Source of the DNA: an uncultured Bacilli bacterium | Lineage (GTDB): Bacteria > Bacillota_I > Bacilli_A > RF39 > UBA660 | Direction: 5' to 3' | NCBI GenBank assembly: GCA_944359625.1 | Contig: CALVSW010000002.1 | Span: 36,332 to 100,331, forward strand | Length of the DNA stretch: 64,000 nt | Shown here: positions 7,724-64,000 of the stretch, in pieces | How positions within the stretch are numbered: position 1 is the first letter of the stretch | Layout: every line of letters begins with the position of its first letter | The notes under the pieces: model-generated | Databases searched by the model: none | What the model saw: the letters and a program-made list of their open reading frames with translations, nothing else | Told to the model about the DNA's origin: nothing | Translations under genes and position numbers: made by a program

Positions 7724-8839
7724 ATGGATATACTTGATATATTTTATAATCATGTAATAAAAGAAGCTTTAACTGGTAGAGTAGATTGTTATTTTTATTA
7801 TAATATTGTATTTAACGTAATAATAGAAGATAAGATGCTAAGTAGTAATTTAGAAGAAGTCTATGAAGATGTTATAATCCCGACTTTAAATATCCAAAAT
7901 AAAGAAGAATTTGATAGATTATTAATTATATATGTTAATAAATGTTTAGAATTTTATGATAATAGTAATTTTCATGAAGAAATATTAAATGGTACTTTAT
8001 ATGATGAAGAAAATAAAATATGTAAAGAAAAAATGATTTTAACTTTATTATTTGCTAATGCTTCTTTAAATGATTTTGCTAATCCAATTTTTTATTTAAA
8101 TAGAAGAATAAATTTTTTAGATAGTTTAACTTGTAATTATGATTTAGGTTATTCAGATATTTTAAATTGTAATTTAGCTATATCAGTTACTAAAGATAAA
8201 ATAAATAATGAAACACCATATCAGTTTGTTGTAACTTTAATATCTTTAGATGGTAGTACTTTTGAACTTCCAAGAATAAAATTTGCTGTAAGTGAAAATA
8301 AAGCATATATTTATGCTATTCAAAATTATAATAAAACAACTTCTTCTTTTTTTAAAAAAACTAATCGAAAATTTTATAAAGTAAATGAAGGATTTAATAA
8401 AGATGAAGATAATAATGAAATATATGGTGATGGTAATTTAAATGATGTTTCTTCTAGTTTTTTACTTGTTGCTAATATGTTAATTACTTACTTGATTACC
8501 CAAAAAGTTAATGAATTTTATGTATGTCCTTTTTTAATAGAAAGATGGAATTCTAAAGTAATTGCAAATCATATTAAAGAAAAATATAAGAATATTGATT
8601 ATAATGAATTATATAAGTTCCAACTTAATATTCAATCTAACTTAACAGAAAAGTTTTTAAGAACTTTTTTAAGATTAAATTATCATTGTGATAATTTAGA
8701 AATAAAAGAATATCCAATGGAACAAGATTCTAATTTGCATATAGTTAGTAATAACGAAATTTATTCAAATAATCTACTATTAAATGAAGTATCTTATTTA
8801 ATAATTAAAAGATTAAAAACTAATAATTTAAAAAAATAA
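7724..8839 (+). CDS. Hypothetical protein
   Basis: Long ORF. I prefer the ATG at 7724 after GTAGGTGA over the GTG at 7715 given in the ORF track. No recognised motif. Confidence 0.55.
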   Translation: MDILDIFYNHVIKEALTGRVDCYFYYNIVFNVIIEDKMLSSNLEEVYEDVIIPTLNIQNKEEFDRLLIIYVNKCLEFYDNSNFHEEILNGTLYDEENKICKEKMILTLLFANASLNDFANPIFYLNRRINFLDSLTCNYDLGYSDILNCNLAISVTKDKINNETPYQFVVTLISLDGSTFELPRIKFAVSENKAYIYAIQNYNKTTSSFFKKTNRKFYKVNEGFNKDEDNNEIYGDGNLNDVSSSFLLVANMLITYLITQKVNEFYVCPFLIERWNSKVIANHIKEKYKNIDYNELYKFQLNIQSNLTEKFLRTFLRLNYHCDNLEIKEYPMEQDSNLHIVSNNEIYSNNLLLNEVSYLIIKRLKTNNLKK

Positions 8840-8899
8840 TGGTAATAACTGGCTAAGTAAAAAAATAATAATTACCTATAATAATATTAGGTGATCAAT

Positions 8900-9880
8900 A
8901 TGAAAAAATATCAATATATCATCTTTTTCTTAAGTATACTTCTTTTTCCTACTTTCGTATTTGCTTATTCTGATAAAGTAATACTAGGTGGTCAAAATGT
9001 TGGTATAGAAATAAATACTAAAGGAGTATTAGTAGCTGGTTTTTATAAAGTTAATGGTGTTTATAATGCTAGTAGATTACTAATTGGTGATTATATTACT
9101 AAAGTAAATGATAAAGAAGTAAATACTATTAATGAATTAGTTAAAGAAATAGAAAATAATGTTATCGATAATAAAATAACTATTAGTTATCGTCGTGACA
9201 ATGTAGATTATACTACTATCCTTGATTTAGAATATAAAGATGGCGTACATAAAACAGGTTTATATGTTAAAGATACATTATTAGGTAATGGTACGATTAC
9301 TTATATAGATCCTGAAAGTAAGATATATGGCGCTTTAGGACATAACGTAGTTGAATCTATTACAAATGATAGAATAGAATTAAGAACAGGTAATATTTTT
9401 AAAAGTAGTATAAGTAGTATAACTAAGAGTAGTGATGGTAATCCCGGAAGTATCAATACTAAATTTTATCGTAATTATATTTATGGAAATATTAAAAGTA
9501 ATAGTTTAGTAGGTATATATGGTAATTATGTAGAAGAAATACCTAGTGATACTTTAATTGAAATAGCTAAAATTGATGAAGTAAATTTAGGTAAAGCTAA
9601 AATATACACTACTTTAGCTAATAATGAAATAAAATCATATGATATAAATATATTAAAAATAGATAAAAGTAGTGATATAAAAAATTTCTATTTTGAAGTA
9701 ATAGATAAAGAATTATTAAATAAATCAGGAGGAATAGTCCAGGGTATGAGTGGTTCGCCAATTGTACAAAATAATAAATTAATTGGAGCAGTTACTCATG
9801 TTACTATAGATAATGTAAAAACAGGTTATGGTGTTAGTATTATAACAATGTTAGAGACTGGTGATAAAGAAATAAACTAG
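8900..9880 (+). CDS. spoIVB: SpoIVB peptidase (S55), sporulation signalling protease
   Basis: Signal anchor, PDZ-like region (LIGDYITKVNDKEV), GTITYIDPESKIYGALGH and catalytic-Ser context GGIVQGMSGSPIV. ATG at 8900 preferred. Confidence 0.85.
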   Translation: MKKYQYIIFFLSILLFPTFVFAYSDKVILGGQNVGIEINTKGVLVAGFYKVNGVYNASRLLIGDYITKVNDKEVNTINELVKEIENNVIDNKITISYRRDNVDYTTILDLEYKDGVHKTGLYVKDTLLGNGTITYIDPESKIYGALGHNVVESITNDRIELRTGNIFKSSISSITKSSDGNPGSINTKFYRNYIYGNIKSNSLVGIYGNYVEEIPSDTLIEIAKIDEVNLGKAKIYTTLANNEIKSYDINILKIDKSSDIKNFYFEVIDKELLNKSGGIVQGMSGSPIVQNNKLIGAVTHVTIDNVKTGYGVSIITMLETGDKEIN

Positions 9881-9932: not shown

Positions 9933-10196
9933 ATGGAAAATTTTTTAACTTGGGATATCTTAACTACATATGCTAGTTTTATATCAATTGTTTTTATGAT
10001 AGTAGAATTTATAAAAGATATTAAATTTATAAATAAAATTCCTACAAAGTATCTAAGTTTTACAATAGCATTTATTTTAATAATTATAACTAACTTCGTT
10101 ATGAATACTTTTAAATATATCGATTTAGTATTATATTTCTTATCATCAATATCTATAAGTTTAGGTACGATTGGATTAAGTAAATTTGATAAATAA
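9933..10196 (+). CDS. Small membrane protein (holin-like topology)
   Basis: 87 aa with two or three hydrophobic segments; AGGGA RBS upstream. Function not established. Confidence 0.45.
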   Translation: MENFLTWDILTTYASFISIVFMIVEFIKDIKFINKIPTKYLSFTIAFILIIITNFVMNTFKYIDLVLYFLSSISISLGTIGLSKFDK

Positions 10197-10234
10197 TTAT
10201 TTGCCACCGGATATATGAATCGCTTAACTAATAA

Positions 10235-10432
10235 TACCCAAATGGCTATTATTGGTCCATGTCGCCGTCCTTTTTCGACGTTGGCACCTCTTCTGCTTAT
10301 GGGGTCCATCAGGACGCGACTGGCCTTGCTTACGGATACCTCTGGGTGACCGGCGGCCTTGGCTTGCGTCCGGTAATCAATCTGCAATCGATTGCTCCTA
10401 AAATAATTAATTTAATTAGCAGATTTCGTTGA
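10235..10432 (+). pseudogene. Start-less 3' fragment of a C-type-lectin-fold (DUF1566/FGE-like) variable-protein gene; candidate decayed DGR variable region
   Basis: Open frame YPNGYYWSMSPSFFDVGTSSAYGVHQDATGLAYGYLWVTGGLGLRPVINLQSIAPKIINLISRFR*. The GC-rich core 10253-10375 has only 13 A in 123 nt on the + strand. A 12-nt palindrome GCAATCGATTGC lies at 10384-10395. Confidence 0.5.
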
Positions 10433-10474
10433 CATATAAGTAAAATTAATATTTAATAGTGATTAGGAGTTTTT

Positions 10475-11188
10475 ATGGAAGAAGTAATATATAAAAATAC
10501 ATTAGAATTAATAAAAAAAGAAAAAGAAAGATATAATCGATTATTAAAGTATTTAGAAAGTGCTTATTGTGCTAAAAGTATAGATGAAAATTTAAGATAT
10601 TTAATAAATTTAAAAGATGGGGAATTTACTTCTAGAATAAATTTAAGTAAAACAGAGTTTATTTTAAAATCATATCAACTAGATAAAGACGTATTATTGT
10701 ATGATTACTTAGCTAAATTTTTAGCAAGTAATGAGTTTTATCGTGCTTTAGTTTTAACTAGTAAAAATGTTACAGTTAATAATAGTAATTTTAGTTTATT
10801 AGATAATAAAGTAGATATTAGCTTAAAGCCATGTATTATTAAAGAAATGTTAACAGAAGGGTTTATTAATTCATTATTTGCTGATAATAACTGGACTGGT
10901 AGCCCTTTTATTGTGTATGGAAGTAATAATTTTGAAACTGGTGGTTTTAACACTTTAAATAGTTATGTTGAATATCATGCTCAATCAGGAAAATGTATTT
11001 GTAGAATGAATTTTGATTATAATACTCAATGTATAATTATGTCTGAAGATGGTAATGCGTATAATAAAGTTATAGAAGATTGGATTAATTTAAATTTAGA
11101 AAGTACAGATGATCCAACGATGTTAGTTAAAATGGCAGGGTATTATAATTCAGTAGAAAAATTAAAAAGTTTAGTTCGTAAATTATAG
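10475..11188 (+). CDS. Hypothetical protein
   Basis: 237-aa ORF with RBS AGGAG. TTGACA-17-TTTAAT promoter-like element at 10429-10457. Confidence 0.6.
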   Translation: MEEVIYKNTLELIKKEKERYNRLLKYLESAYCAKSIDENLRYLINLKDGEFTSRINLSKTEFILKSYQLDKDVLLYDYLAKFLASNEFYRALVLTSKNVTVNNSNFSLLDNKVDISLKPCIIKEMLTEGFINSLFADNNWTGSPFIVYGSNNFETGGFNTLNSYVEYHAQSGKCICRMNFDYNTQCIIMSEDGNAYNKVIEDWINLNLESTDDPTMLVKMAGYYNSVEKLKSLVRKL

Positions 11189-11243
11189 TTGTAGATTATT
11201 CAACTAATAAATGATATAATCTACTAGTAAAAAGGAGTAGAAA

Positions 11244-11867
11244 ATGCAAGAGTTTATTTTAAGTTTTATGGAACAATTTGGATATTTAGGAGTATTTTTA
11301 TTAATTACTATTGAAAATGTATTTCCACCAATACCATCTGAGGTTATATTATTATTTGGTGGCTTTATGACTACTTATACTAAATTAAATATTGCAATTA
11401 TGGCTATATCAGCTACATTAGGCTCTGTTCTTGGCGCTATTATTTTATATTATATTGGTAAAATATTTAATAAAGAACGTTTAAAAAAGATTATATCTGG
11501 TAAATTAGGGAAGATATTAAGACTTAAAAATTCGGATATTGATGCAGCAGATCGTTGGTTTGATACTCGTGGTCAAAAAACAGTATTCTTATGTCGTTTT
11601 GTTCCGATAGTGCGTAGTTTAATTAGTATTCCAGCAGGAATGAGTGAAATGCCTTTAGGTAAATTTTTACTTTATACAACAGCTGGATCATTAATTTGGA
11701 ATGTCGTTTTAATTATTATTGGGTCAATCGTAGGTAATAATTGGTCAAGTATTTTAAATGTTTTTGATACATACCAAAATATTGTTATTGTAATTCTTGG
11801 GGTTATCTTTATTGGCTTTGTATTTTGGTTCTATAAAATTAAGAGTAAAAATAAAAGTAAAAATTAA
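11244..11867 (+). CDS. DedA family membrane protein
   Basis: GYLGVFLLITIENVFPPIPSEVIL and FVPIVRSLISIPAGM motifs. Extended -10 TGATATAAT at 11212-11220. Confidence 0.85.
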   Translation: MQEFILSFMEQFGYLGVFLLITIENVFPPIPSEVILLFGGFMTTYTKLNIAIMAISATLGSVLGAIILYYIGKIFNKERLKKIISGKLGKILRLKNSDIDAADRWFDTRGQKTVFLCRFVPIVRSLISIPAGMSEMPLGKFLLYTTAGSLIWNVVLIIIGSIVGNNWSSILNVFDTYQNIVIVILGVIFIGFVFWFYKIKSKNKSKN

Positions 11868-26292: not shown

Positions 26293-27993
26293 ATGAATTA
26301 TCAAAGTATCTTAAAAAGGCAAACATCTATTATCTTAATATCTGTAATTGTTATGGTTTTAATTATAATAGGCGTTAGTTATTCATTATTTATGCAAGTA
26401 GATGAATCTAATGATGTACAAGTAGTAGAAAGTGGTACTTTAGTATTATCTTCAAATAAAGGAAATACAATAACTACTAATAATGTTCCATTATCAGATA
26501 TTGAAGGATTAGGTAGTGAAGGATATACTTTTAGTGTTAAAAATAATGGTACATTAGGATATTTATATAATTTATATATAAATAATAAAGCATCATCTAA
26601 TCCATTAGAATATGAATATATTAAAATATCATTTGATGATGGTCCAGTAACAAAACTAAGTGATTTAGAAGTTGATTCAGAAAAAGGATTAATCTTATTA
26701 GCAAATAATTATATTGCACCTGCTAATGAAGAAGGTGATGTTGTAACTCATAATATTAAAGTATGGATAGAAGAAACTGCACCAACAAGTATAATAGGTA
26801 AAAATATATTACTTCAAATTGATATGTATGGAGAAGCAGGTGAAACTTTTTATAAAGATTCTTCAGGAGCTTCAGAGCCAGAATTATATTCAGGTTTAAT
26901 ACCTGTAACTTATAATGATACAAATGAAATAGTAATTGCTGATTTATATAGTAATTGGTATGATTATGATGCTCATGAATGGGCCAATGCAATACTTATT
27001 GACCAAAATAATACAACAACTAAGAATAAGTATTTAAATGCTGATGGAACATATAAATCTGGAACAGTAGTAGAAGAAACAGATATACTACAAATGTATG
27101 TCTGGGTTCCAAGATATAAGTATCAGTTGTTTAATGTTGAAGGTGCAGATACAGAAGCTCAAATGATAAATATTCAGTTTGAAAGTAATACTACATCTAA
27201 ATCAAATGGTACTCAGAACGGAGAATGGTTAACGCATCCAGCGTTTACCTTTGGTACTACCGAGTTAAATGGAATCTGGATAGGTAAATTCGAATCAAGT
27301 AATGATATATCTGATATTAAGATAATACCAAATGTATCTAGTTTACGTAATCAAACCGTTGGTAATATGTTCAATGCTTCCCGTGCCATTGAAACAAATG
27401 CTAAATATGGTTTATCTGCATCTGAAGTCGATACCCATATGATGAAGAATATGGAGTGGGGTGCCGTAGCTTACCTGACAAATTCTAAGTATGGTAGATA
27501 CGAAGCCTCTGGTAGTTGTATTTCATCTGGATGTGAAGTCTTGATTAATAATAATAATAGTTACACCACCGGATGTGCTGGAGATAGCGTATCAGCATCA
27601 TCAAACTCCTCATGTAATGCTTGGAATACATCAACTGGTGTGAATGCCTCTACTACTGGTAACATCTATGGAATATATGATATGAGTGGTGGAGCATGGG
27701 AGTACGTCATGGGAAATTACAATAAAACCGTTGATTCTTCTGGAATCAATTTTGGTAGTATTGATAGTAAGTATTATGATGTATATACTGGTAATGGTAA
27801 GTTAGGTGATGCTACTAAGGAAACTCAGGGTTGGAATAACGATCGCGCGCTCTTTGTCAGTTCGTTTGGTCCGTGGTTCAAGCTCGGTGGCAGCTACGGC
27901 GGTGGCTCTGATGCGGGGGTCTTCGGCTTCAGCAACGGCGATGGCGGTGCGTATTCCGACGTCTCGTGGCGTGTTGTTTTGTCCTCCGAATAG
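26293..27993 (+). CDS. Membrane-anchored surface protein with C-terminal FGE-sulfatase/C-type-lectin-like domain; candidate DGR variable protein
   Basis: N-terminal TM. NMEWGAVAYL and GIYDMSGGAWEYVMG (GxYDMxGNxWEW-like) motifs. GC-rich, A-poor C-terminal tail ending SWRVVLSSE. Confidence 0.8.
   Translation: MNYQSILKRQTSIILISVIVMVLIIIGVSYSLFMQVDESNDVQVVESGTLVLSSNKGNTITTNNVPLSDIEGLGSEGYTFSVKNNGTLGYLYNLYINNKASSNPLEYEYIKISFDDGPVTKLSDLEVDSEKGLILLANNYIAPANEEGDVVTHNIKVWIEETAPTSIIGKNILLQIDMYGEAGETFYKDSSGASEPELYSGLIPVTYNDTNEIVIADLYSNWYDYDAHEWANAILIDQNNTTTKNKYLNADGTYKSGTVVEETDILQMYVWVPRYKYQLFNVEGADTEAQMINIQFESNTTSKSNGTQNGEWLTHPAFTFGTTELNGIWIGKFESSNDISDIKIIPNVSSLRNQTVGNMFNASRAIETNAKYGLSASEVDTHMMKNMEWGAVAYLTNSKYGRYEASGSCISSGCEVLINNNNSYTTGCAGDSVSASSNSSCNAWNTSTGVNASTTGNIYGIYDMSGGAWEYVMGNYNKTVDSSGINFGSIDSKYYDVYTGNGKLGDATKETQGWNNDRALFVSSFGPWFKLGGSYGGGSDAGVFGFSNGDGGAYSDVSWRVVLSSE
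27853..27978 (+). repeat. DGR variable-region-like repeat (VR1)
   Basis: 126 nt, 60% G+C, 12 adenines. Aligns codon for codon with 59818-59943, with 26 mismatches at template adenines and 15 at other bases. Confidence 0.75.
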
Positions 27994-28007
27994 CTGTGAA
28001 ACAGCTA
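27991..28007 (+). promoter_or_regulatory. Hairpin spanning the stop codon, immediately 3' of VR1 (candidate DGR target-recognition inverted repeat)
   Basis: TAGCTGT-GAA-ACAGCTA: 7-bp perfect stem with a 3-nt loop, beginning at the TAG stop. Confidence 0.5.
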
Positions 28008-28088
28008 TTTTGCACATTTGCACAGAGAAAAAGAAATTTATAACGTGTATAAATAAAAACTATAGTGAAACAAAAGGGCGAGACGTTT

Positions 28089-52225: not shown

Positions 52226-53268
52226 GTGATTAAGATGAGATATTTACCAAGATATGGGGCTGTATTAATTGAAGGATGTAAGTGGTGTGGTAAATCGACG
52301 ACTGGTGCACATCACGCAAAAAGTATAATTGAGTTTCAAAATCCTGATAAAAAACAAGAGTATGATAATATTAAAAATACTAAACCATCATTATTTTTAA
52401 ATGGCGAAAAACCAAGAATGTTTGATGAATGGCAAATGTATCCTGTTGTATGGGATTCAATTAGATAGGTAAAGATATTTCTGGAGTATCTAAATTGTCA
52501 TTAGAAAATTTAGCAAGTATTATAGTTAGGGGAGGATGGCCAGCAAGTATTGGTATAGATGGAGATATAAAATACAGGTTTGCAAAAGAATATGTAAAAT
52601 CTTTAATTCACGAGGATGTTAGAAAAATTAATGGGATTGAAAGAAATCCTGAAAAAATGCAAAATATATTAAGAAGTTTAGCTAGAAATATTACTACTCA
52701 AGTTTCTAATTATACTATTGAAGGAGATATAAAAAATAGTTTTGCTGATGATATATCTAGACCAACTTTGATAGATTATTTAAATACTTTAGAAAAATTA
52801 TTTGTTATTGAAGATGTTAATGCTACTAATTTAAATTTTAGAAGTAAATATGCCTTAAGAACTAAACCTAAAAAGTATTTTGTTGATCCTTCAATTGCAA
52901 CTGCTATTCTTGATATGAAACCAAACGATTTAATTAATGATTTAAATACTTTTGGTTTTATGTTTGAATCTCTTTGTATTAGAGATTTAAAAATATATAT
53001 GCAAAGTTATGATGGTAATATATCTTTTTATCGTGATGAGAAAGATTTTGAAGTTGATGCTATTATTAGAACTAATAATGGTATGTGGGGCGCTATTGAA
53101 ATTAAGTTAGGTGCCGGTTATATTGATAGTGCTGCAAATAATCTATTAAAGTTTAAAGATAAAGTAGATGTTGAAAAATGTGGAGAGCCAGCTTTTTTAG
53201 CAGTATTAACTGGTACTGATTATTCTTATGGTGTTTATGTTGTATCTATTGGCACTTTAAAAAATTAA
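52226..53268 (+). pseudogene. AAA ATPase (AAA_14/DUF4143 family) with an internal deletion/stop
   Basis: Walker A GCKWCGKST in the 52226-52468 piece and a DUF4143-like tail in 52495-53268. The segment present in the 58.6-kb copy (…EVDHRG..QFILTGSS…MRPMSLYE…) is missing. Confidence 0.65.
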
Positions 53269-57194: not shown

Positions 57195-57238
57195 CAAAAA
57201 TATTAGAATAATATATAATGTATGTAGAGGTGAATTGT

Positions 57239-58447
57239 ATGCTAGTAAGAGAAGATTATTTATCTAAAATAAGAGGATTTTATGATTCTGATTTAATTAA
57301 AATATTAGTAGGAATAAGAAGATGTGGAAAATCAGTTATTTTAAATCAAATAATAGATGAATTAAAAGAAAAGAAAAATATAGATGAGGAACATATAATA
57401 TTTATTAATTTTGAATTTATTGAATTTGAAGATTTATTAGATTATAAAAAATTAAATAAATATATAAAAGATAAGATTAAAGATGATAAAATATATTACT
57501 TATTTTTAGATGAAGTTCAAAATGTTGATAACTTTGAAAAAGTTGTTAATTCCTTAAGGGCTTCAGTTAAAAATATTAGCATATTTTTAACTGGCTCTAA
57601 TAGTAAAATGTTATCAGATGAATTATCAACGGTTTTATCAGGTAGATATGTATTATTTAATATAAATCCTTTATCTTATAAAGAATATATTTCTTTAACT
57701 AGTAAAGATGGTAAAGATTTAAATAATTTTTGGGATTATGCTAAATGGGGAGGATTACCTAATAGATGTCAATTTACTAATGAAATAGATATAAAGAATT
57801 ATCTTCATAGTGTATATGATTCAATTATTTTAAGAGATGTAGTAAAAAGACTTAATTTAAAGGATACTGTATTATTTGATATGATATTACAATACTTAAT
57901 AGAAATTGCAGGTCGAGAATTCTCTGCTGATAATATTATAAAATATTTAGAAAAAGAAAATAAAAAAATATCTAATGAAACATTATATAATTATTTAGAT
58001 GCTTTATGTAAAGCATTAATATTAAAAAAAGTATATAGATATGATATATCAGGTAAAGGTGTTTTAAAAACATTAAATAAGTATTATGCAACTGACTTGG
58101 GAATTGCCCAAATTAAGAATAATAATCCTGAATTTAAAACTTATATAGTATTAGAAAATATAGTATATAATGAATTAATAAATAGAAACTATGAAGTATA
58201 TATAGGTAAAACCAAAAATGGTGAAATAGATTTTTTAGTTAAAAAAGATGGCTTAATAAAGTATATACAAGTAAGTTATGAATTATATGGTAATGATAGT
58301 GCGATTGAAAGAGAATTTGGGGCATATAAATATATTGATGATAATTATCCTAAATATGTTATATCACTTGATAAAATAGATTTATCTCGTGATGGTATTA
58401 TACACTTAAATTTAATAGATTTCTTATTAAATGATAAATTACTATAA
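57239..58447 (+). CDS. AAA ATPase, AAA_14/DUF4143 family (intact copy)
   Basis: GIRRCGKS Walker A, LFLDEVQ Walker B, and a C-terminal DUF4143-like region. ATG at 57239 after GTAGAGGTGA. Confidence 0.8.
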   Translation: MLVREDYLSKIRGFYDSDLIKILVGIRRCGKSVILNQIIDELKEKKNIDEEHIIFINFEFIEFEDLLDYKKLNKYIKDKIKDDKIYYLFLDEVQNVDNFEKVVNSLRASVKNISIFLTGSNSKMLSDELSTVLSGRYVLFNINPLSYKEYISLTSKDGKDLNNFWDYAKWGGLPNRCQFTNEIDIKNYLHSVYDSIILRDVVKRLNLKDTVLFDMILQYLIEIAGREFSADNIIKYLEKENKKISNETLYNYLDALCKALILKKVYRYDISGKGVLKTLNKYYATDLGIAQIKNNNPEFKTYIVLENIVYNELINRNYEVYIGKTKNGEIDFLVKKDGLIKYIQVSYELYGNDSAIEREFGAYKYIDDNYPKYVISLDKIDLSRDGIIHLNLIDFLLNDKLL

Positions 58448-58592: not shown

Positions 58593-59163
58593 AATAAGAA
58601 TACTGGAAAAACTCCTAGATTAATAGATGAATGGGAAATTGCTCCTAAGTTATGGGACGCAGTTAGATTCGAAGTGGATCATCGAGGAGTTGAAGGCCAA
58701 TTTATTTTAACTGGATCATCAGTTCCTGCTAATATGCAAAATGTTTTCCATACCGGCACTGGTAGATTTAGTTGGCTCTTAATGCGACCAATGAGTTTAT
58801 ATGAGTCTGGTGAATCAACTGGAGAAGTTAGTTTATTTAGTTTATTTGATAATTCAACAAAAATAAGTGGTATTAATAAATATACTTTAGAAGATATAGC
58901 GTATTTATGTTGTAGAGGTGGTTGGCCAAGGAGTATAGATATGGATAAAGATATTGCCTTAGACCAAGCATATGATTATTATGAAGAGTTTTAATTTAGA
59001 TATTTCAAGAGTAGATAATGTGACTAGAAATCCAGAAAGAGCAAAACACTTAATGAGGAGTTATGCTAGAAATATTGGAAGTCAAGCATCTAATGAAACA
59101 TTAAGAAATGACATGATTTCTAATGATTTAAATACATCAAACAAGAAATATATAGTCAAATGA
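58593..59163 (+). pseudogene. 5'-truncated, frameshifted AAA/DUF4143 ATPase remnant
   Basis: Frame opens after a TAA with …LIDEWEIAPKLWDAVRFEVDHRG…ILTGSS…. A frameshift lies near 58990. Homology to the 52.5-kb copy (RGGWP.SI, ERNPE, SYARNI) is lost after about 59140. Confidence 0.6.
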
Positions 59164-59817
59164 TGGTATACAATATAATGCAATCAATAACAAATGATTT
59201 AGATACTGAAATAGACCAGAGAAAATATAAATATACAATGAAAATTAATATTAATATGGCGATCGGTTTTGTAAAAAGATTTTTATTAAAAATATTATTA
59301 GAAGATAATGAAGAAAAAATGCAGAAATTATCAGATTTATTATTTGAAAACATTTTAAAGAATATAGTTCCAATTAGAAATGATCGACATTATAAAAGAG
59401 ATAATGTTCGTAAGAATAAACATCCTATAAATAAAAGGAAATCTATATAAAATTATTATATGTTTATAAACATTTCTTTTTGTCGTAGTAAAATTTACTA
59501 ATTCATATAAAAAGGAAAAAGATAAATTAAATTATCATAATTTATCTTTCCTTAAGTTAATGACATTGAGTTAAACTAGTGGATTTTTATTTTATTAGCA
59601 TTTAAAGGGCATTTAATTCATGCTAATAGTAATAATTTTATTGTTAGTATTTTAAGAAAAATATTAGAAGTAGATGGTATTGTTAAAGTTATTTATTTAA
59701 CTAGTAAATTTGAAGATGCTAGTATTAAAAAGACTATTGAAGATGAAATAAATAGAATGGTATAATTTAATTGCTTATAAAATAAATAAGCTGGGATTAG
59801 GTTATTTAAACGTGAAC

Positions 59818-59943
59818 TTCGTCAATTCGAACAATCCGTGGCTCAAACGCGGTGGTAACCACAACAATGGCACCAATGCAGGCGTGTTCAACTTCAATAA
59901 CAACAATGGTAATGCGAATTCCAACAATTCGTTCCGGGTTGTT
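59818..59943 (+). repeat. DGR template-repeat-like segment (TR), orphan
   Basis: 126 nt with 38 adenines; 16 of 42 codons are AAY. Reads FVNSNNPWLKRGGNHNNGTNAGVFNFNNNNGNANSNNSFRVV. Aligns without gaps to VR1 at 27853-27978. Confidence 0.7.
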
Positions 59944-60198
59944 CTAGAAACGATAAATTAAATTATAGTATAAAAGTTTTAAACATATCTAACTACAAGA
60001 TAGTAAGAGTTTAGAATATTCTATAGAGGTATTTATCGAAATCTAGTTCCAATCTATAAAATAGGTTAAAATAAGAATTACGCTCTGGTTAGTAAATGTA
60101 TTTGAAAATTAGAGAGTAATAACCCCATAGCAAGTTTGTTATGGGGTAATTTTATTATATAATTATATATAATATGTATATACTATATATATAATATA

Positions 60199-60227
60199 TT
60201 GACAAAGAATTATATATGTAGCATAAT
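60199..60227 (+). promoter_or_regulatory. Sigma-A type promoter of the relB/yafQ-like operon
   Basis: TTGACA, a 17-nt spacer, then CATAAT, about 25 nt upstream of the antitoxin start. Confidence 0.55.
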
Positions 60228-60252
60228 TTTATTATCTAAGTGAGGTGTAAAA

Positions 60253-60546
60253 ATGAAAACTTTGACAAATGGGATTATTAATGTTCATGTTGATCCTAAA
60301 GATAAAGAAGATGCTACAATTATTTTAAAAGATTTGGGATTAAATATGAGTACTCTAATAAATATGACTTTAAAACAAGTTATTAAAAGAAAAGCTATTC
60401 CTTTTGATGTTGCAATACCGTCATATAATGATAGATTAGAAAATGCTTTAAAAGAAAGTAAAGTTATTGAAAAAGAATATAAGAGTGGTACAAGAAAAGG
60501 CTATAACAATGTTAATGAAATGATGGAGTCTATTATAGATGATTGA
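60253..60546 (+). CDS. RelB/DinJ family antitoxin
   Basis: 97 aa; …VDPKDKEDATIILKDLGLNMSTLINMTLKQVI is a ribbon-helix-helix DinJ-like N-terminus. Overlaps the toxin gene by 8 nt. Confidence 0.8.
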   Translation: MKTLTNGIINVHVDPKDKEDATIILKDLGLNMSTLINMTLKQVIKRKAIPFDVAIPSYNDRLENALKESKVIEKEYKSGTRKGYNNVNEMMESIIDD

Positions 60547-60844
60547 TTTATCTTTAAATACTAAATGTAAAATTGATTATACTAGTGAGTTCAAAAGACA
60601 GCTTAAGAAAGTTATAAAACAAGGTAAAGATATTAATATATTGTTAGAAGTGATTAGTAAATTAGCTAATCAAGAGGAATTAGATTTGAAATATAAAAAT
60701 CATCATTTGATAAATGATAATACTTATAGAGATTGTATGGAATGTCATTTAAAACCTTATTGGTTACTAGTATATAAATATATTGATAATAATTTAGTAT
60801 TGTTACTTGTTACAACAGGTAGCCATAGTGACATCTTAGAGTAG
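60539..60844 (+). CDS. yafQ: YafQ/RelE family mRNA interferase toxin
   Basis: …FKRQLKK…HHLINDNTYRDCMECHLKPYWLLVYKYIDNNLVLLLVTTGSHSDIL matches the YafQ signature (H…CH..PD.LLIY…TGSHSDL). Confidence 0.8.
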   Translation: MIDLSLNTKCKIDYTSEFKRQLKKVIKQGKDINILLEVISKLANQEELDLKYKNHHLINDNTYRDCMECHLKPYWLLVYKYIDNNLVLLLVTTGSHSDILE

Positions 60845-60872
60845 GTGGTAGTAAAAACTACCACTTTTTTTT
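60845..60872 (+). terminator. Rho-independent terminator
   Basis: GTGGTAGT-AAAA-ACTACCAC followed by T8. Confidence 0.9.
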
Positions 60873-60907
60873 AAAGTATGATAGAATACTATTAAGGAAT
60901 GTGTATT

Positions 60908-62047
60908 ATGAAATTGAGTGATATTAAAAATAATTTAGATCATGATGAAATATATTCTAATTATGCATGTAAAAACAAAGATGCGATTAGGTTTAATGAA
61001 GATAAAGAAGATATTAGACCTCCTTTTTTACATGATAGTGATAAAATTATTTATTCACTTGCATATACTAGGTATATCAATAAAACTCAAGTTTATTCTT
61101 TAGTTGATAATGATAACATAAGTAAGCGAATGACGCATGTGCAGATGGTTAGTAAAATTGCTCGTACGATTGGTAGAGCTTTAGGGTTAAATGAAGATTT
61201 AATTGAGGCTGCAAGTCTTGGGCATGATTTAGGACATACCCCACTAGGCCATGTTGGTGAATCTATTTTAAATAAGATAAGTTTAGAGGTAGGAGAAGGT
61301 TACTTTAATCATAATATTCAAAGTGTTCGCAATTTAATGTTTATTGAAAACATGGGAAATGGTTCTAACATTACTTTACAAGTATTAGATGCGATTATGT
61401 GCCATAATGGTGAATTAGAGTTAGAATTATATAAACCTATAAAGAAGACTAAAGAAGAATTTTTAAAAGAATATTATGATTCTTATAAGTATAAAGATAA
61501 AGTAAAAGAATTAATTCCGATGACACTAGAAGGATGCGTAGTAAGAATTAGTGATTTAATTGCCTATTTAGGTCGCGATGTCGAAGATGCTATTAGATTA
61601 GGTAAGTTAAAAAGAAGTGATATACCAAGTTCGATAACTAATATCTTAGGTAATACTAATAGTAGTTTAATTAATACTTTTGTATTAGATATTATATCTA
61701 ATAGTACTTCTAAATATATAAAAATGAGTAAAGAAAAATTTGCAGTATTAAAAGAATTAAAGAAGTTTAATTATGAGAATATATATAATAAAGCTAATGA
61801 TAAAGATATAATTGATAAATGGGAAAATATGTTTAGGGTAGTATTTAATTACTATTTAAATGATTTAGAAAATAAAAATATTGATAGTAATATATATATT
61901 TATTTTTATAAGTATAAAAATGATTATTATAAGAATAATACTTCTTTAAAAAGAGTAGTTATAGATTATATAGCAGGTATGACTGATGAATTTTTTATAA
62001 AAGAATATAAAAATATTATAAGGAGGAAGAAAGATGAAAAAGAGTGA
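60908..62047 (+). CDS. dGTPase-like HD-domain triphosphohydrolase
   Basis: RMTHVQMVSKIAR…GHDLGHTPLGHVGE and DY(I)AGMTDEF motifs. ATG at 60908 after AAGGAA. Confidence 0.85.
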   Translation: MKLSDIKNNLDHDEIYSNYACKNKDAIRFNEDKEDIRPPFLHDSDKIIYSLAYTRYINKTQVYSLVDNDNISKRMTHVQMVSKIARTIGRALGLNEDLIEAASLGHDLGHTPLGHVGESILNKISLEVGEGYFNHNIQSVRNLMFIENMGNGSNITLQVLDAIMCHNGELELELYKPIKKTKEEFLKEYYDSYKYKDKVKELIPMTLEGCVVRISDLIAYLGRDVEDAIRLGKLKRSDIPSSITNILGNTNSSLINTFVLDIISNSTSKYIKMSKEKFAVLKELKKFNYENIYNKANDKDIIDKWENMFRVVFNYYLNDLENKNIDSNIYIYFYKYKNDYYKNNTSLKRVVIDYIAGMTDEFFIKEYKNIIRRKKDEKE

Positions 62048-63764
62048 TAATTATACGTTAACTAAAGAAGAAATAGAAAATAATCATATTGTCCAGAATA
62101 AAAAGTCTTATTTTGTAGTATTTGGTATTTTAGCACTATCTATATGTTTATTAATTGTAGGTAGTTTATTTCGTAATAATATTACGCCAGATTATCCATT
62201 AGTATTTATAGATGCTAATAATAAGTTAATGGTTATTACTAAAACTGGTAATAGTAAAAATGATATTACTAATATAGAAGATGCTAATATTGTGTATGCC
62301 AATGAAGATATTAGATATATTTTATATACTAATAATACTAGTTTATATTTATTAGATACTACTAGTGGTGGTGAAGGAACATTACTAAGTAAAAATGTTA
62401 AAGATTATGGCTTTAGTAGTGATGATGAAGCTGTATATTATATTGAACAAGATGGCTCATTATATGTATATATTAGAAAAGATAAAACTTCTTATTTAAT
62501 AGATAGTAATGTTAAAGAAGCTATTGATGTTATTGATAATTATGTTGTTTATGGTAAAGATAATAGCTTATTAATTAAAGATTATATTAACTTAGCAGTA
62601 GATACTATAGCAAATAGTTATGGTGAAGTGTATATAAGCGAAGATTATGATATGATTTTATATGCCACTGATAAAAGCGATTATAAAGATTATTATATTT
62701 ATAATATAAAAACAACAAGTAATAATAAAATATTAAATAGAGTTTATGAGTTATTAAATTATAATCCGGATTTTACAGAATTTATTTATACATCTAAAAA
62801 TGATGATCCTTTAAATATTTATGAAGAATTAAATGATACATTAGTGGATAGCGATCGTAAATTTGTTGTTTATAGTGATAAAGATGTAGAAAATGGGACT
62901 ATTACGGAAGAAGAAAAAAAGAAAAATGATGAAGAAAGTACTTTAGTTAGTGAACGTAATAAAATGAGAGAATATGCCCGTAATTATCCTAATAGTGGTT
63001 ATAATTTATATTATCAATTAAAGGAAACTAAAACACTTCTTGCTAGTGGGGTAATTGATGTTTATGTAGATGATTATGATAATAAAAGAGTTGTTTATAC
63101 TAAAAATACATGGAATAATATTCTAGATTTAAAAGATTATAATACATTAGATGAATTTAAAAAAGCATTAGAAAGTAATAAAACTAAAGGATTATATTAT
63201 CAAATAAATACTGATACTCCTTCTTTAATAAAAGATAATATTGGAGATAATATTGAATTAATATATAAAGAAAATGATGGTGTTTATTATATAGAAAATA
63301 CTAATTTATATTATAGTCAAGTATTTGGTCGTAAAGCATCAAGTAGTACTTTAGTTGATAGTAATTTAATTACTACTAAATTAAATAAAGTTTTAGATCT
63401 TGGTGTAGTATATTTAACTAGTGATAATAACTCCTTAAAATATGTTAGTAAAGGACGTAGCCGTTTAATTAATCAAGATGTTTATCGTGAATTTATTGAA
63501 GTATCAGAGACTGAAGATGCTATATATTATTTACGTAATTATGCAAATCATTCTGGGACTTTAATGTTATTTAATGGTATTAGAAATTCTAAATTAAGTG
63601 ATAATGTATCTAGTTTTATTTATATTAATGATGAGCTTATGTATGCTACTAAAGATTATGATGAAGAAACAAAAACTAGTGATTTATATCGTTTAAATGG
63701 TAGTAAGTTTACATTTATATATAAAGGAATATTAGAGTGGTTTAGTCCAGTTGCAAAAAATTAA
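62034..63764 (+). CDS. Membrane-anchored hypothetical protein (repetitive beta-rich ectodomain)
   Basis: 576-aa ORF that overlaps the upstream gene by 14 nt. One TM (YFVVFGILALSICLLIVGSLF). No recognised catalytic motif. Confidence 0.6.
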   Translation: MKKSDNYTLTKEEIENNHIVQNKKSYFVVFGILALSICLLIVGSLFRNNITPDYPLVFIDANNKLMVITKTGNSKNDITNIEDANIVYANEDIRYILYTNNTSLYLLDTTSGGEGTLLSKNVKDYGFSSDDEAVYYIEQDGSLYVYIRKDKTSYLIDSNVKEAIDVIDNYVVYGKDNSLLIKDYINLAVDTIANSYGEVYISEDYDMILYATDKSDYKDYYIYNIKTTSNNKILNRVYELLNYNPDFTEFIYTSKNDDPLNIYEELNDTLVDSDRKFVVYSDKDVENGTITEEEKKKNDEESTLVSERNKMREYARNYPNSGYNLYYQLKETKTLLASGVIDVYVDDYDNKRVVYTKNTWNNILDLKDYNTLDEFKKALESNKTKGLYYQINTDTPSLIKDNIGDNIELIYKENDGVYYIENTNLYYSQVFGRKASSSTLVDSNLITTKLNKVLDLGVVYLTSDNNSLKYVSKGRSRLINQDVYREFIEVSETEDAIYYLRNYANHSGTLMLFNGIRNSKLSDNVSSFIYINDELMYATKDYDEETKTSDLYRLNGSKFTFIYKGILEWFSPVAKN

Positions 63765-63820
63765 CATTATATGGTTTATAATGTTAAAAATGTAACATAA
63801 TAAATATAGGGAGGTCTTTC

Positions 63821-64000
63821 ATGAAATATAAGGAGTATAAGAGGGATAGTTATAATTTATATACAATAAAAACTGATAAATTTAGAACGTGTGAAATAGA
63901 AATTGTTTTTCGTCAAAAGTTAAGTAAAGAAAAAATTACGATAAATAATTTACTTATTGATTGTTTAACATATACATCCAAAAAATATCCAAAGCGCAAA
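63821..64000 (+). CDS. M16 (pitrilysin/insulinase) family protein, N-terminal part (runs off the window)
   Basis: ATG after AGGGAGG. The first 60 aa (…YNLYTIKTDKFRTCEIEIVF…) resemble N-termini of YmfF/YmfH-type M16 proteins. Confidence 0.45.
   Translation, partial: MKYKEYKRDSYNLYTIKTDKFRTCEIEIVFRQKLSKEKITINNLLIDCLTYTSKKYPKRK

Follow-up and report, generated by a model that had tools for sequence, protein, structure and literature searches.

An adenine-rich segment at 59.8 kb of the window, by which we mean the whole 64,000-nt stretch of DNA from an uncultured Bacilli bacterium analysed here (positions are numbered on the whole stretch), is in all likelihood (a probability of about 80%) the genuine template repeat (TR) of a second diversity-generating retroelement (DGR) cassette that has decayed and lost its reverse transcriptase (RT). 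This cassette, DGR-b, is a decayed copy of a known system and not a new one. The original prediction had coupled the segment to a variable region (VR), referred to below as VR1, that lies about 32 kb away at the 3′ end of a 566-aa open reading frame (ORF). That coupling did not survive, as the VR1 alleles fit a paralogous TR family, TRa, far better than they fit the segment, which represents the family TRb. Judged from its sequence, VR1 appears to be a remote target of a different, paralogous DGR of the TRa type.

The segment is A-rich, AAY-rich and non-coding, adjoins a stub of an RT gene, and is nearly invariant across strains while the VRs vary. The stub was recognized by tblastn with an intact 391-aa RT (P0121, RVT_1), residues 297-358 of which match 59586-59759 with 63% identity (E=5e-17); the TR is thus preceded by the remnant of its RT gene. 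Contig L033 from the same species has a 216-aa RVT_1 ORF whose end matches the stub with 96.7% DNA identity and shares with it the terminus EDEINRMV followed by the stop codon. This RT, RT-b, is only 75% identical to RT-a, the RT of contigs L019 and L021. The remains of DGR-b upstream of and including the TR are as follows:

58674-59137, + strand: pseudogene of a second AAA_14/DUF4143 ATPase, with a weak AAA_14 match, at the left edge of the deletion.
59273-59321, + strand: displaced scrap of RT coding sequence, 49 nt (84% blastn identity with RT genes in L037 and L038, E=1.7e-6).
59586-59765, + strand: 3′ stub of the DGR RT gene (RT-b), with neither a start codon nor catalytic motifs.
59808-59946, + strand: TRb-type template repeat of the decayed cassette DGR-b, A-rich and AAY-rich, identical or nearly so across allele-A contigs, with an ortholog in L019.

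The original prediction that neither RT nor Avd is visible anywhere in the 64 kb holds for intact genes, since none is encoded, but it had overlooked the RT stub. No RVT_1 match was found among the ORFs flanking the TR and no credible YxDD-containing ORF in the six frames of the window, and a tblastn search of the window with L021's bAvd and MutS_I-like proteins detected no remnant (E>0.05). The locus thus has no intact RT with its TR and no accessory gene (avd or MutS-like), and lacking an RT in cis, the DGR-b unit cannot drive mutagenic retrohoming. Candidates for a hidden RT or Avd were rejected. The TR-flanking ORFs are assigned by Pfam to AAA_14/DUF4143 (the ATPase at 57218-58447, also upstream of the TR), RelB, YafQ and HD-domain proteins. 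RelB/YafQ and the HD-domain protein lie downstream of the TR, as does a 576-aa protein without a Pfam match; its ORF contains a YVDD motif, has no RVT match and belongs to the housekeeping gene order of all same-species contigs. The 96-aa ORF at 59160-59450, considered as an Avd, has no Pfam or bAvd tblastn match and contains the 49-nt RT scrap. AAA_14/DUF4143 copies or fragments at 52495-53268, 57218-58447 and 58674-59137 cluster around the decayed cassette, and their state (intact, truncated or frameshifted) depends on the strain.

Comparison of strains places the window in a series of decayed alleles. We gathered same-species contigs (97-100% identical) via four neighbouring proteins and found no intact RT at the relBE locus in about 25 contigs of the species. 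The window's arrangement, an RT stub followed by the TR, constitutes allele A, which at least 12 contigs share with the window. Nine contigs recovered from other samples have exactly the window's TR-spacer unit, while in another four allele-A contigs it carries 3-11 differences over its 406 positions. Over 5-7 kb, contigs from ERR4096640 and BRZ_KR are 100% identical to the window. Allele C, found in L033, is less eroded: an intact second AAA_14 gene abuts the 216-aa RVT_1 ORF, which lacks roughly its first 140 residues and retains the IGNYTSQ and YMDD motifs, and the TR follows. The window's AAA_14 pseudogene corresponds, at 95% identity, to a portion of this second gene, which in L033 encodes 426 aa. 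Between this pseudogene and the RT stub, about 450 nt of filler (59137-59583) stands in place of about 1 kb of allele C and, apart from the 49-nt RT scrap, has no match to any sequence compared. The proposal that the segment belongs to a fossil DGR whose RT module was deleted is therefore supported by the RT stub, by the N-terminally truncated RT of L033 and by the lack of an intact RT at this locus.

Allele B, carried by seven contigs, has a 185-aa ORF in which the start of the AAA_14 pseudogene is fused to the C-terminal part of a lectin-like target (L003 7365-7922, as well as L004, L024, L026, L028, L029 and L030; equivalent to 58.5-59.95 kb of the window). Its 3′ end is chimeric, being VR-like until about AGCAATGG and, beyond that, identical to the TR and spacer. 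The chimera is identical in five of the seven contigs, while that of L030 differs by three substitutions and that of L004 lacks one base. Its sequence points to allele B being a product of homologous recombination between a VR and a TR, in which the intervening DNA, including the RT, would have been deleted.

A degenerate TR/VR pattern also led us to a metagenome-assembled genome (MAG) of a sister species, BRZ_GD bin14 ("uncultured Bacilli bacterium"), which is about 89% identical to the window over 59757-63990. In its contig L018, a target gene follows an AAA_14 pseudogene that is 94% identical to that of the window. In its contig L019, the order is partial RT ORF (with IGNYTSQ and YMDD), TRa, spacer, TRb, spacer, terminator, relB/yafQ and HD. 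The window's TR and the TRb of L019 are orthologous, with 10 differences in 137 positions. Scans with patterns for the TR/VR backbone, leader and spacer returned nothing from IMG/VR and the JGI metagenomes, and only two sister-species MAGs from GTDB.

From these alleles and relatives we infer that DGR-b was once laid out as AAA_14, AAA_14, target2 (with VR2), accessory genes, RT-b, TR-RNA unit and relBE. The deletion leading to allele A would have taken the RT from codon 1 to about codon 296, together with target2 and any accessory genes, leaving in the window (59.59-60.16 kb) a promoterless RT 3′ stub and an apparently complete TR-RNA unit.

The original prediction had placed the segment in a decayed, non-coding region with no ORF in the 300 nt after the TR. 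Both flanks carry features: the RT remnant lies upstream, and a conserved spacer of about 200 nt, predicted to be structured and ending in a terminator, lies downstream. Together with elements ahead of the TR, the spacer and terminator form what is apparently a complete TR-RNA unit, comprising a promoter-like site, a leader hairpin, a bracketing helix, the spacer and the terminator:

59737-59766, + strand: promoter-like site, TTGAAG, an 18-nt spacer and a TG-extended TATAAT (consensus scan, 10 of 12 matches).
59773-59791, + strand: leader hairpin GCTTAT...ATAAGC ahead of the TR; every TR unit is predicted to have one.
59792-59803, + strand: 5′ arm of the bracketing helix, a long-range helix of 12 bp around the TR; it pairs with 60040-60051.
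59947-60121, + strand: predicted structured spacer (Sp) with three hairpins, the long P1, P2 and P3, and the 3′ arm of the bracketing helix.
60122-60156, + strand: intrinsic terminator closing the TR-RNA unit, with an 11-bp stem and a T run (one found against 0.2 expected from shuffles).

Promoter-like matches around the TR are in total not above those of shuffled sequence; a TATAAT box stands at the equivalent place ahead of every TR unit in the relatives, and the site at 59737-59766 may serve the TR RNA. The leader hairpin keeps its stem across TR units while its loop varies. In an RNAalifold comparison of 10 units, the bracketing helix has 12 pairs, none of them broken, with one compensatory change (GC to AU) and three one-sided changes; it is also present in the minimum-free-energy fold of the window sequence. 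The consensus structure of the 10 units has 95 pairs, 11 of which show compensatory changes, giving moderate covariation support because the units are close in sequence; for the spacer, 7-11 compensatory pairs were counted. Spacers of TRa and TRb units have a common structure and are about 89% identical. Rfam RT-14 matches 60021-60120 weakly (29.6 bits, against a gathering score of 48.1), and scans of the whole window with Rfam at gathering thresholds and for tRNAs gave nothing.

The resemblance between the segment and VR1 reproduced in every figure of the original prediction. The island at 59818-59943 has 45.2% G+C in a genome with a background of about 24%, contains 38 adenines and has 42 codons, 16 of them AAC or AAT. 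Its ungapped alignment to 27853-27978, where the 566-aa ORF (26293-27993) has its 3′ end, shows 41 mismatches, 26 of which fall on the 38 TR adenines (21 A to G and 5 A to T) and 15 on the 88 other bases. The enrichment at adenines is highly significant (P = 4.6e-8, Fisher's test) and the observed value was reached in none of 200,000 permutations. The ungapped match of 85 out of 126 positions lies 12 standard deviations (SD) above the window-wide background and is unique when both strands are scanned.

Adenine bias of this kind is nonetheless shared by paralogous templates. TRa and TRb have the same adenine positions and differ at about 13 other bases; this is why VR1 appears adenine-biased against the 59.8-kb TR, and the 15 non-adenine mismatches are essentially the backbone divergence between the two families. 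In a functional pair, differences would fall almost only at TR adenines. Non-adenine mismatches over non-adenine positions were, for each VR1 allele:

VR1 of the window: 17/91 against the window TR (over 132 nt); 5/96 against TR_L042.
VR1_L010: 14/91 against the window TR; 3/97 against a TRa-type TR.
VR1_L015: 15/91 against the window TR; 4/97 against a TRa-type TR.
VR1_L007: 17/90 against the window TR; 7/96 against a TRa-type TR.

Overall, the VR1 alleles have 3-9 non-adenine mismatches in 96-97 positions against TRa, compared to 14-17 in 90-91 against the window TR, and they share non-adenine bases that differ from the window TR. The best fit of the window's own VR1 is a TR of the rnc locus (see below); 24 of the 36 adenines of TR_L042 are mismatched. 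Two adjacent pairs in relatives calibrate these values. VR2 of L018 against TRa of L019, taken as an active pair, differs at 20 of 35 adenines and at none of 88 other bases, and the VR of L038 differs at 13 of 35 adenines, with non-adenine mismatches of 1/97 against TRa of L019 and 2/97 against the TR of L038 itself. Only in relatives did VRs show a TRb backbone, namely in L017, whose tandem targets have 7/91 non-adenine mismatches against the window TR and 5/92 against TRb of L019, and in L055, with 10/91 against the window TR. VR1 would accordingly have as its template the TRa of a cassette beside rnc-smc, with the window TR assigned to the TRb family.

Individual bases of the window TR were also inspected. 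CTC (Leu) at 59842-59844, within the PWF motif, is private to the TR of the window's allele, as TTC occupies this position in all other TRs and, with a single exception, in the roughly 110 homologue C-termini listed. GCA GGC GTG at 59878-59886 corresponds to backbone bases of the window TR. CAC at 59860-59862, considered as a decay mutation, was rejected as such, since a template with C at this place is what the L017 and L055 VRs point to.

VR1 itself stands as a DGR-diversified region, as the original prediction had proposed: samples differ in its sequence, giving at least four alleles, and a conserved hairpin follows it. The features of the target are:

26293-27993, + strand: 566-aa target gene carrying VR1, with a weak FGE-sulfatase/C-type-lectin-like match.
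27847-27984, + strand: VR1, with at least four alleles in same-species contigs; best template TR_L042.
27990-28008, + strand: hairpin ATAGCTGT-GAA-ACAGCTAT directly 3′ of VR1, a candidate target-recognition element.

The match of the target gene to PF03781 is weak (21.4 bits, below the cut-off of 23.3). Its family numbers 7114 homologues, whose C-termini are hypervariable across the database. VR1 lies at the 3′ end of a putative C-type-lectin/FGE-like domain, its end being 15 nt ahead of the stop codon, and one of its alleles has a codon indel. The exact 566-aa protein is not on record, which is consistent with VR variability without proving it. An 8-bp hairpin follows every VR and no TR, and its stems covary (AGCTGT/ACAGCT, AGTTGC/GCAACT and AGCTGC/GCAGCT). 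Right behind the hairpin there is a conserved motif, TT(T/C)TGCACATTTGCACAG (28009-28025 in the window, and at VRs in L007-L039), which occurs at all target genes examined but two (L034 lacks the TTYT lead and L020 the motif) and is absent behind TRs.

Variation is not restricted to the VR. All ten of the contigs L007-L016 (26.3-27.8 kb) end within the target gene, 160-350 codons short of its stop, and in one allele group the body of the gene is only 85% identical to the window; the target gene appears from these sequences to be recombining or heterogeneous well beyond the VR. In the sister species, L017 carries tandem paralogous targets of 564 and 508 aa (8128-9822 and 10001-11527) with identical VR sequences, which suggests gene conversion, a recent duplication or one homing product in both.

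The cassette that would supply TRa lies directly upstream of rnc-smc on other contigs and has the order target, MutS_I-like, bAvd, RT (RT-a, 391 aa) and TR. Intact 391-aa RTs were found on other contigs only. The rnc-locus DGR (L035-L044; L021 11176-11502) differs from strain to strain. The cassette is intact in L037, L038 and L041. L041-L043 have one or two tandem TR units, those of L042 and L043 being two identical ones. In L021/L037, the TR is reduced to its last ~45 nt, and avd, RT and TR are deleted in 13 of the 22 rnc-locus contigs read, leaving target, MutS-like gene and rnc. The rnc-locus contigs appear to belong to the window's species. In sample ERZ16268082, the intact rnc-locus cassette (L021/L037) occurs together with the allele-A contig L047, which has 99.3% identity to the window, and L040 joins VanY-AAA_14 DNA of the window type (98.6%) to rnc-smc (98.9% to L037); this evidence is good and not conclusive. 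The suggestion that the segment is served by an RT elsewhere in the genome thus gains an apparently same-species cassette, which however has its own TR.

Several points weigh against the reading of the segment as the TR of a dead cassette beside a separate TRa system. The same-species case rests on a single sample, on L040, which is possibly chimeric, and on TR/VR backbone matches. L019, the sole contig with RT, TRa, TRb and relBE together, could be an assembly chimera, as it shows 97% identity to rnc-locus contigs on the left and 89% identity to the window on the right. The best fits of the VR1 alleles keep 3-5 non-adenine mismatches, the exact template of each allele not having been found. 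An RT may be encoded elsewhere in the window's own genome, the analysis having covered individual contigs of the species. Finally, the TR-RNA unit has no obvious damage, and continued use in trans would fit this too.

Such use is the alternative that survives best, although we consider it unlikely. Here the orphan TRb unit would be a working second template, used in trans by the Avd and RT of the rnc locus, with TRa and TRb copied into different paralogous targets. The complete appearance of the unit and the likeness of TRa and TRb spacers speak for it, as does the existence of tandem TR units after a single RT (L042 and L043, and TRa with TRb in L019). TRb-backbone VRs do exist in relatives (L017 and L055), and in ERZ16268082 the allele-A contig has a full-length TRb while the rnc-locus TR consists of its last ~45 nt only. 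Moreover, a DGR can operate with its TR, avd and RT supplied in trans, and co-transcription is unnecessary (PMC5758913). Within the window's species, however, no contig was seen to have a TRb-type VR; the comparison assigned all four VR1 alleles to the TRa type, as it did three targets adjacent to rnc. The private CTC in a motif that near-universally has TTC, and the loss of avd, RT and TR from most rnc-locus contigs, likewise argue against a template in service.

Present-day inactivity is likewise presumed. VR1 alleles recur identically in 4-5 samples that diverge from the window by 1-3% in the flanking sequence; this recurrence gives no sign of ongoing diversification and argues, indirectly, against rapid turnover. 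Neither does conservation speak for use of the unit. Between the window and L019, the TR unit differs at 21 of 354 positions, compared to 1 of 44 4-fold sites in relBE and 67 of 189 in the next two genes, so that the unit is conserved no better than relBE synonymous sites. By gene, the 4-fold differences amount to 0/26 in relB, 1/18 in yafQ, and 26/76 and 41/113 in the next two genes (59757-60844 compared). The TR unit and relBE behave as a recently shared or exchanged island of low divergence, which makes conservation of the unit uninformative about selection.

A more elaborate version, in which the RT-less unit would be a stand-alone, trans-acting template gene and an alternative scaffold for Avd/RT, with TR/VR/TR homology driving the rearrangements of L019 and L040, strikes us as just as doubtful. 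L040 1-3440 runs VanY-AAA_14...VR2/TRa chimera-spacer-rnc-smc, and together with L019 6200-8000 (minus strand) it looks, by its sequence, like one of a pair of reciprocal hybrids of the relBE and rnc loci. These hybrids are either TR-mediated inversions or recombinations, or assembly chimeras. If the unit did act in trans, it would offer a natural example of modular template swapping in DGRs, and it would be the only full-length template in strains with a truncated rnc-locus TR, such as that of ERZ16268082.

It is very improbable that the segment is not a TR at all and instead represents the decayed 3′ end of an Asn-rich, lectin-fold paralogue, as a dead VR or a coding remnant. The segment does read in frame throughout 59818-59943 (FVNSNNPW...SFRVV), and in allele B the same 3′ sequence ends the 185-aa lectin-like ORF. 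That ORF is a recombinant, though, whose VR-like part stops where TR identity starts, and in allele A no ORF covers the segment. It lies after an RT remnant and before a conserved spacer, like the TRs of the intact relatives, it retains adenines at 38 positions where VRs vary, and the VR-type downstream hairpin is missing after it. A chance or compositional resemblance between two G+C-richer islands, for which nothing speaks but their composition in a 24% G+C genome, is refuted by the window scan and the permutation test given above, along with the homologous TR and VR families in many contigs, and has practically no probability left.

Apart from these loci, we noted a dispersed intergenic repeat of about 195 nt whose copies are 82-86% identical and which has no Rfam or tRNA match; it occurs at 10195-10392 (minus strand) of the window, at L001 19879-20070 and, as three tandem copies, at L021 18830-19603.

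With DGR-b read as a decayed cassette, the apparent anomaly of a TR 32 kb from a VR and with no RT becomes ordinary DGR decay. The locus documents a rare erosion series within one gut Bacilli species, from an N-terminally truncated RT to a stub and, separately, to a VR x TR recombinant, and the second cassette of the species is also intact, truncated or deleted depending on the strain. It also cautions that adenine-biased mismatch alone cannot identify a cognate TR and VR where paralogous TRs exist, and that the non-adenine backbone is what discriminates between them.

Among known systems, the gene order here is RT-TR and not TR-RT as in BPP-1, and the TR is enclosed by the leader/spacer helix. 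To our knowledge, no such TR-enclosing helix has been described for BPP-1. The VR hairpins, by analogy, resemble the initiation of mutagenic homing (IMH) element and the hairpin/cruciform found 3′ of the VR in BPP-1, where retrohoming needs the hairpin as a cis element (Guo et al. 2011, PMC3240598); here the comparable feature is an 8-bp, G+C-containing hairpin with a 3-4 nt loop and covarying stems, located 3′ of VRs and not of TRs.

In overall layout, the intact relatives correspond to Architecture D, with MutS-like (MSL) and avd genes, ordered target, MutS_I-like, bAvd, RT and TR (Wu et al. 2018, PMC5758913). The window shares with it a TR rich in AAY codons, a lectin-like gene that ends in a VR, differences specific to adenines, and targets that are not adjacent, as is common among DGRs (PMC5758913), but keeps only the TR-RNA unit and the RT stub and has no MSL, avd or intact RT. 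In Trichodesmium erythraeum IMS101, too, the RT is inactivated, the TR persists as its own transcription unit and a number of VRs have ceased to be exact targets (Pfreundt et al. 2014, PMC4143802); there a single stop interrupts the RT and TR transcription was measured, whereas in the window about 75% of the RT is deleted and the unit would be transcribed from its promoter-like site. The closest likeness in strain distribution is to Treponema denticola, isolates of which have lost the DGR in part or altogether (Nimkulrat et al. 2016, PMC4891356). There, as here, the core cassette is gained or lost by strain, and "leftover" target VRs still differ from a TR mainly at adenines (PMC4891356). The leftovers of T. 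denticola are target genes without RT or TR, whereas that of the window is a TR-RNA unit with an RT stub, in a species that has a second cassette.

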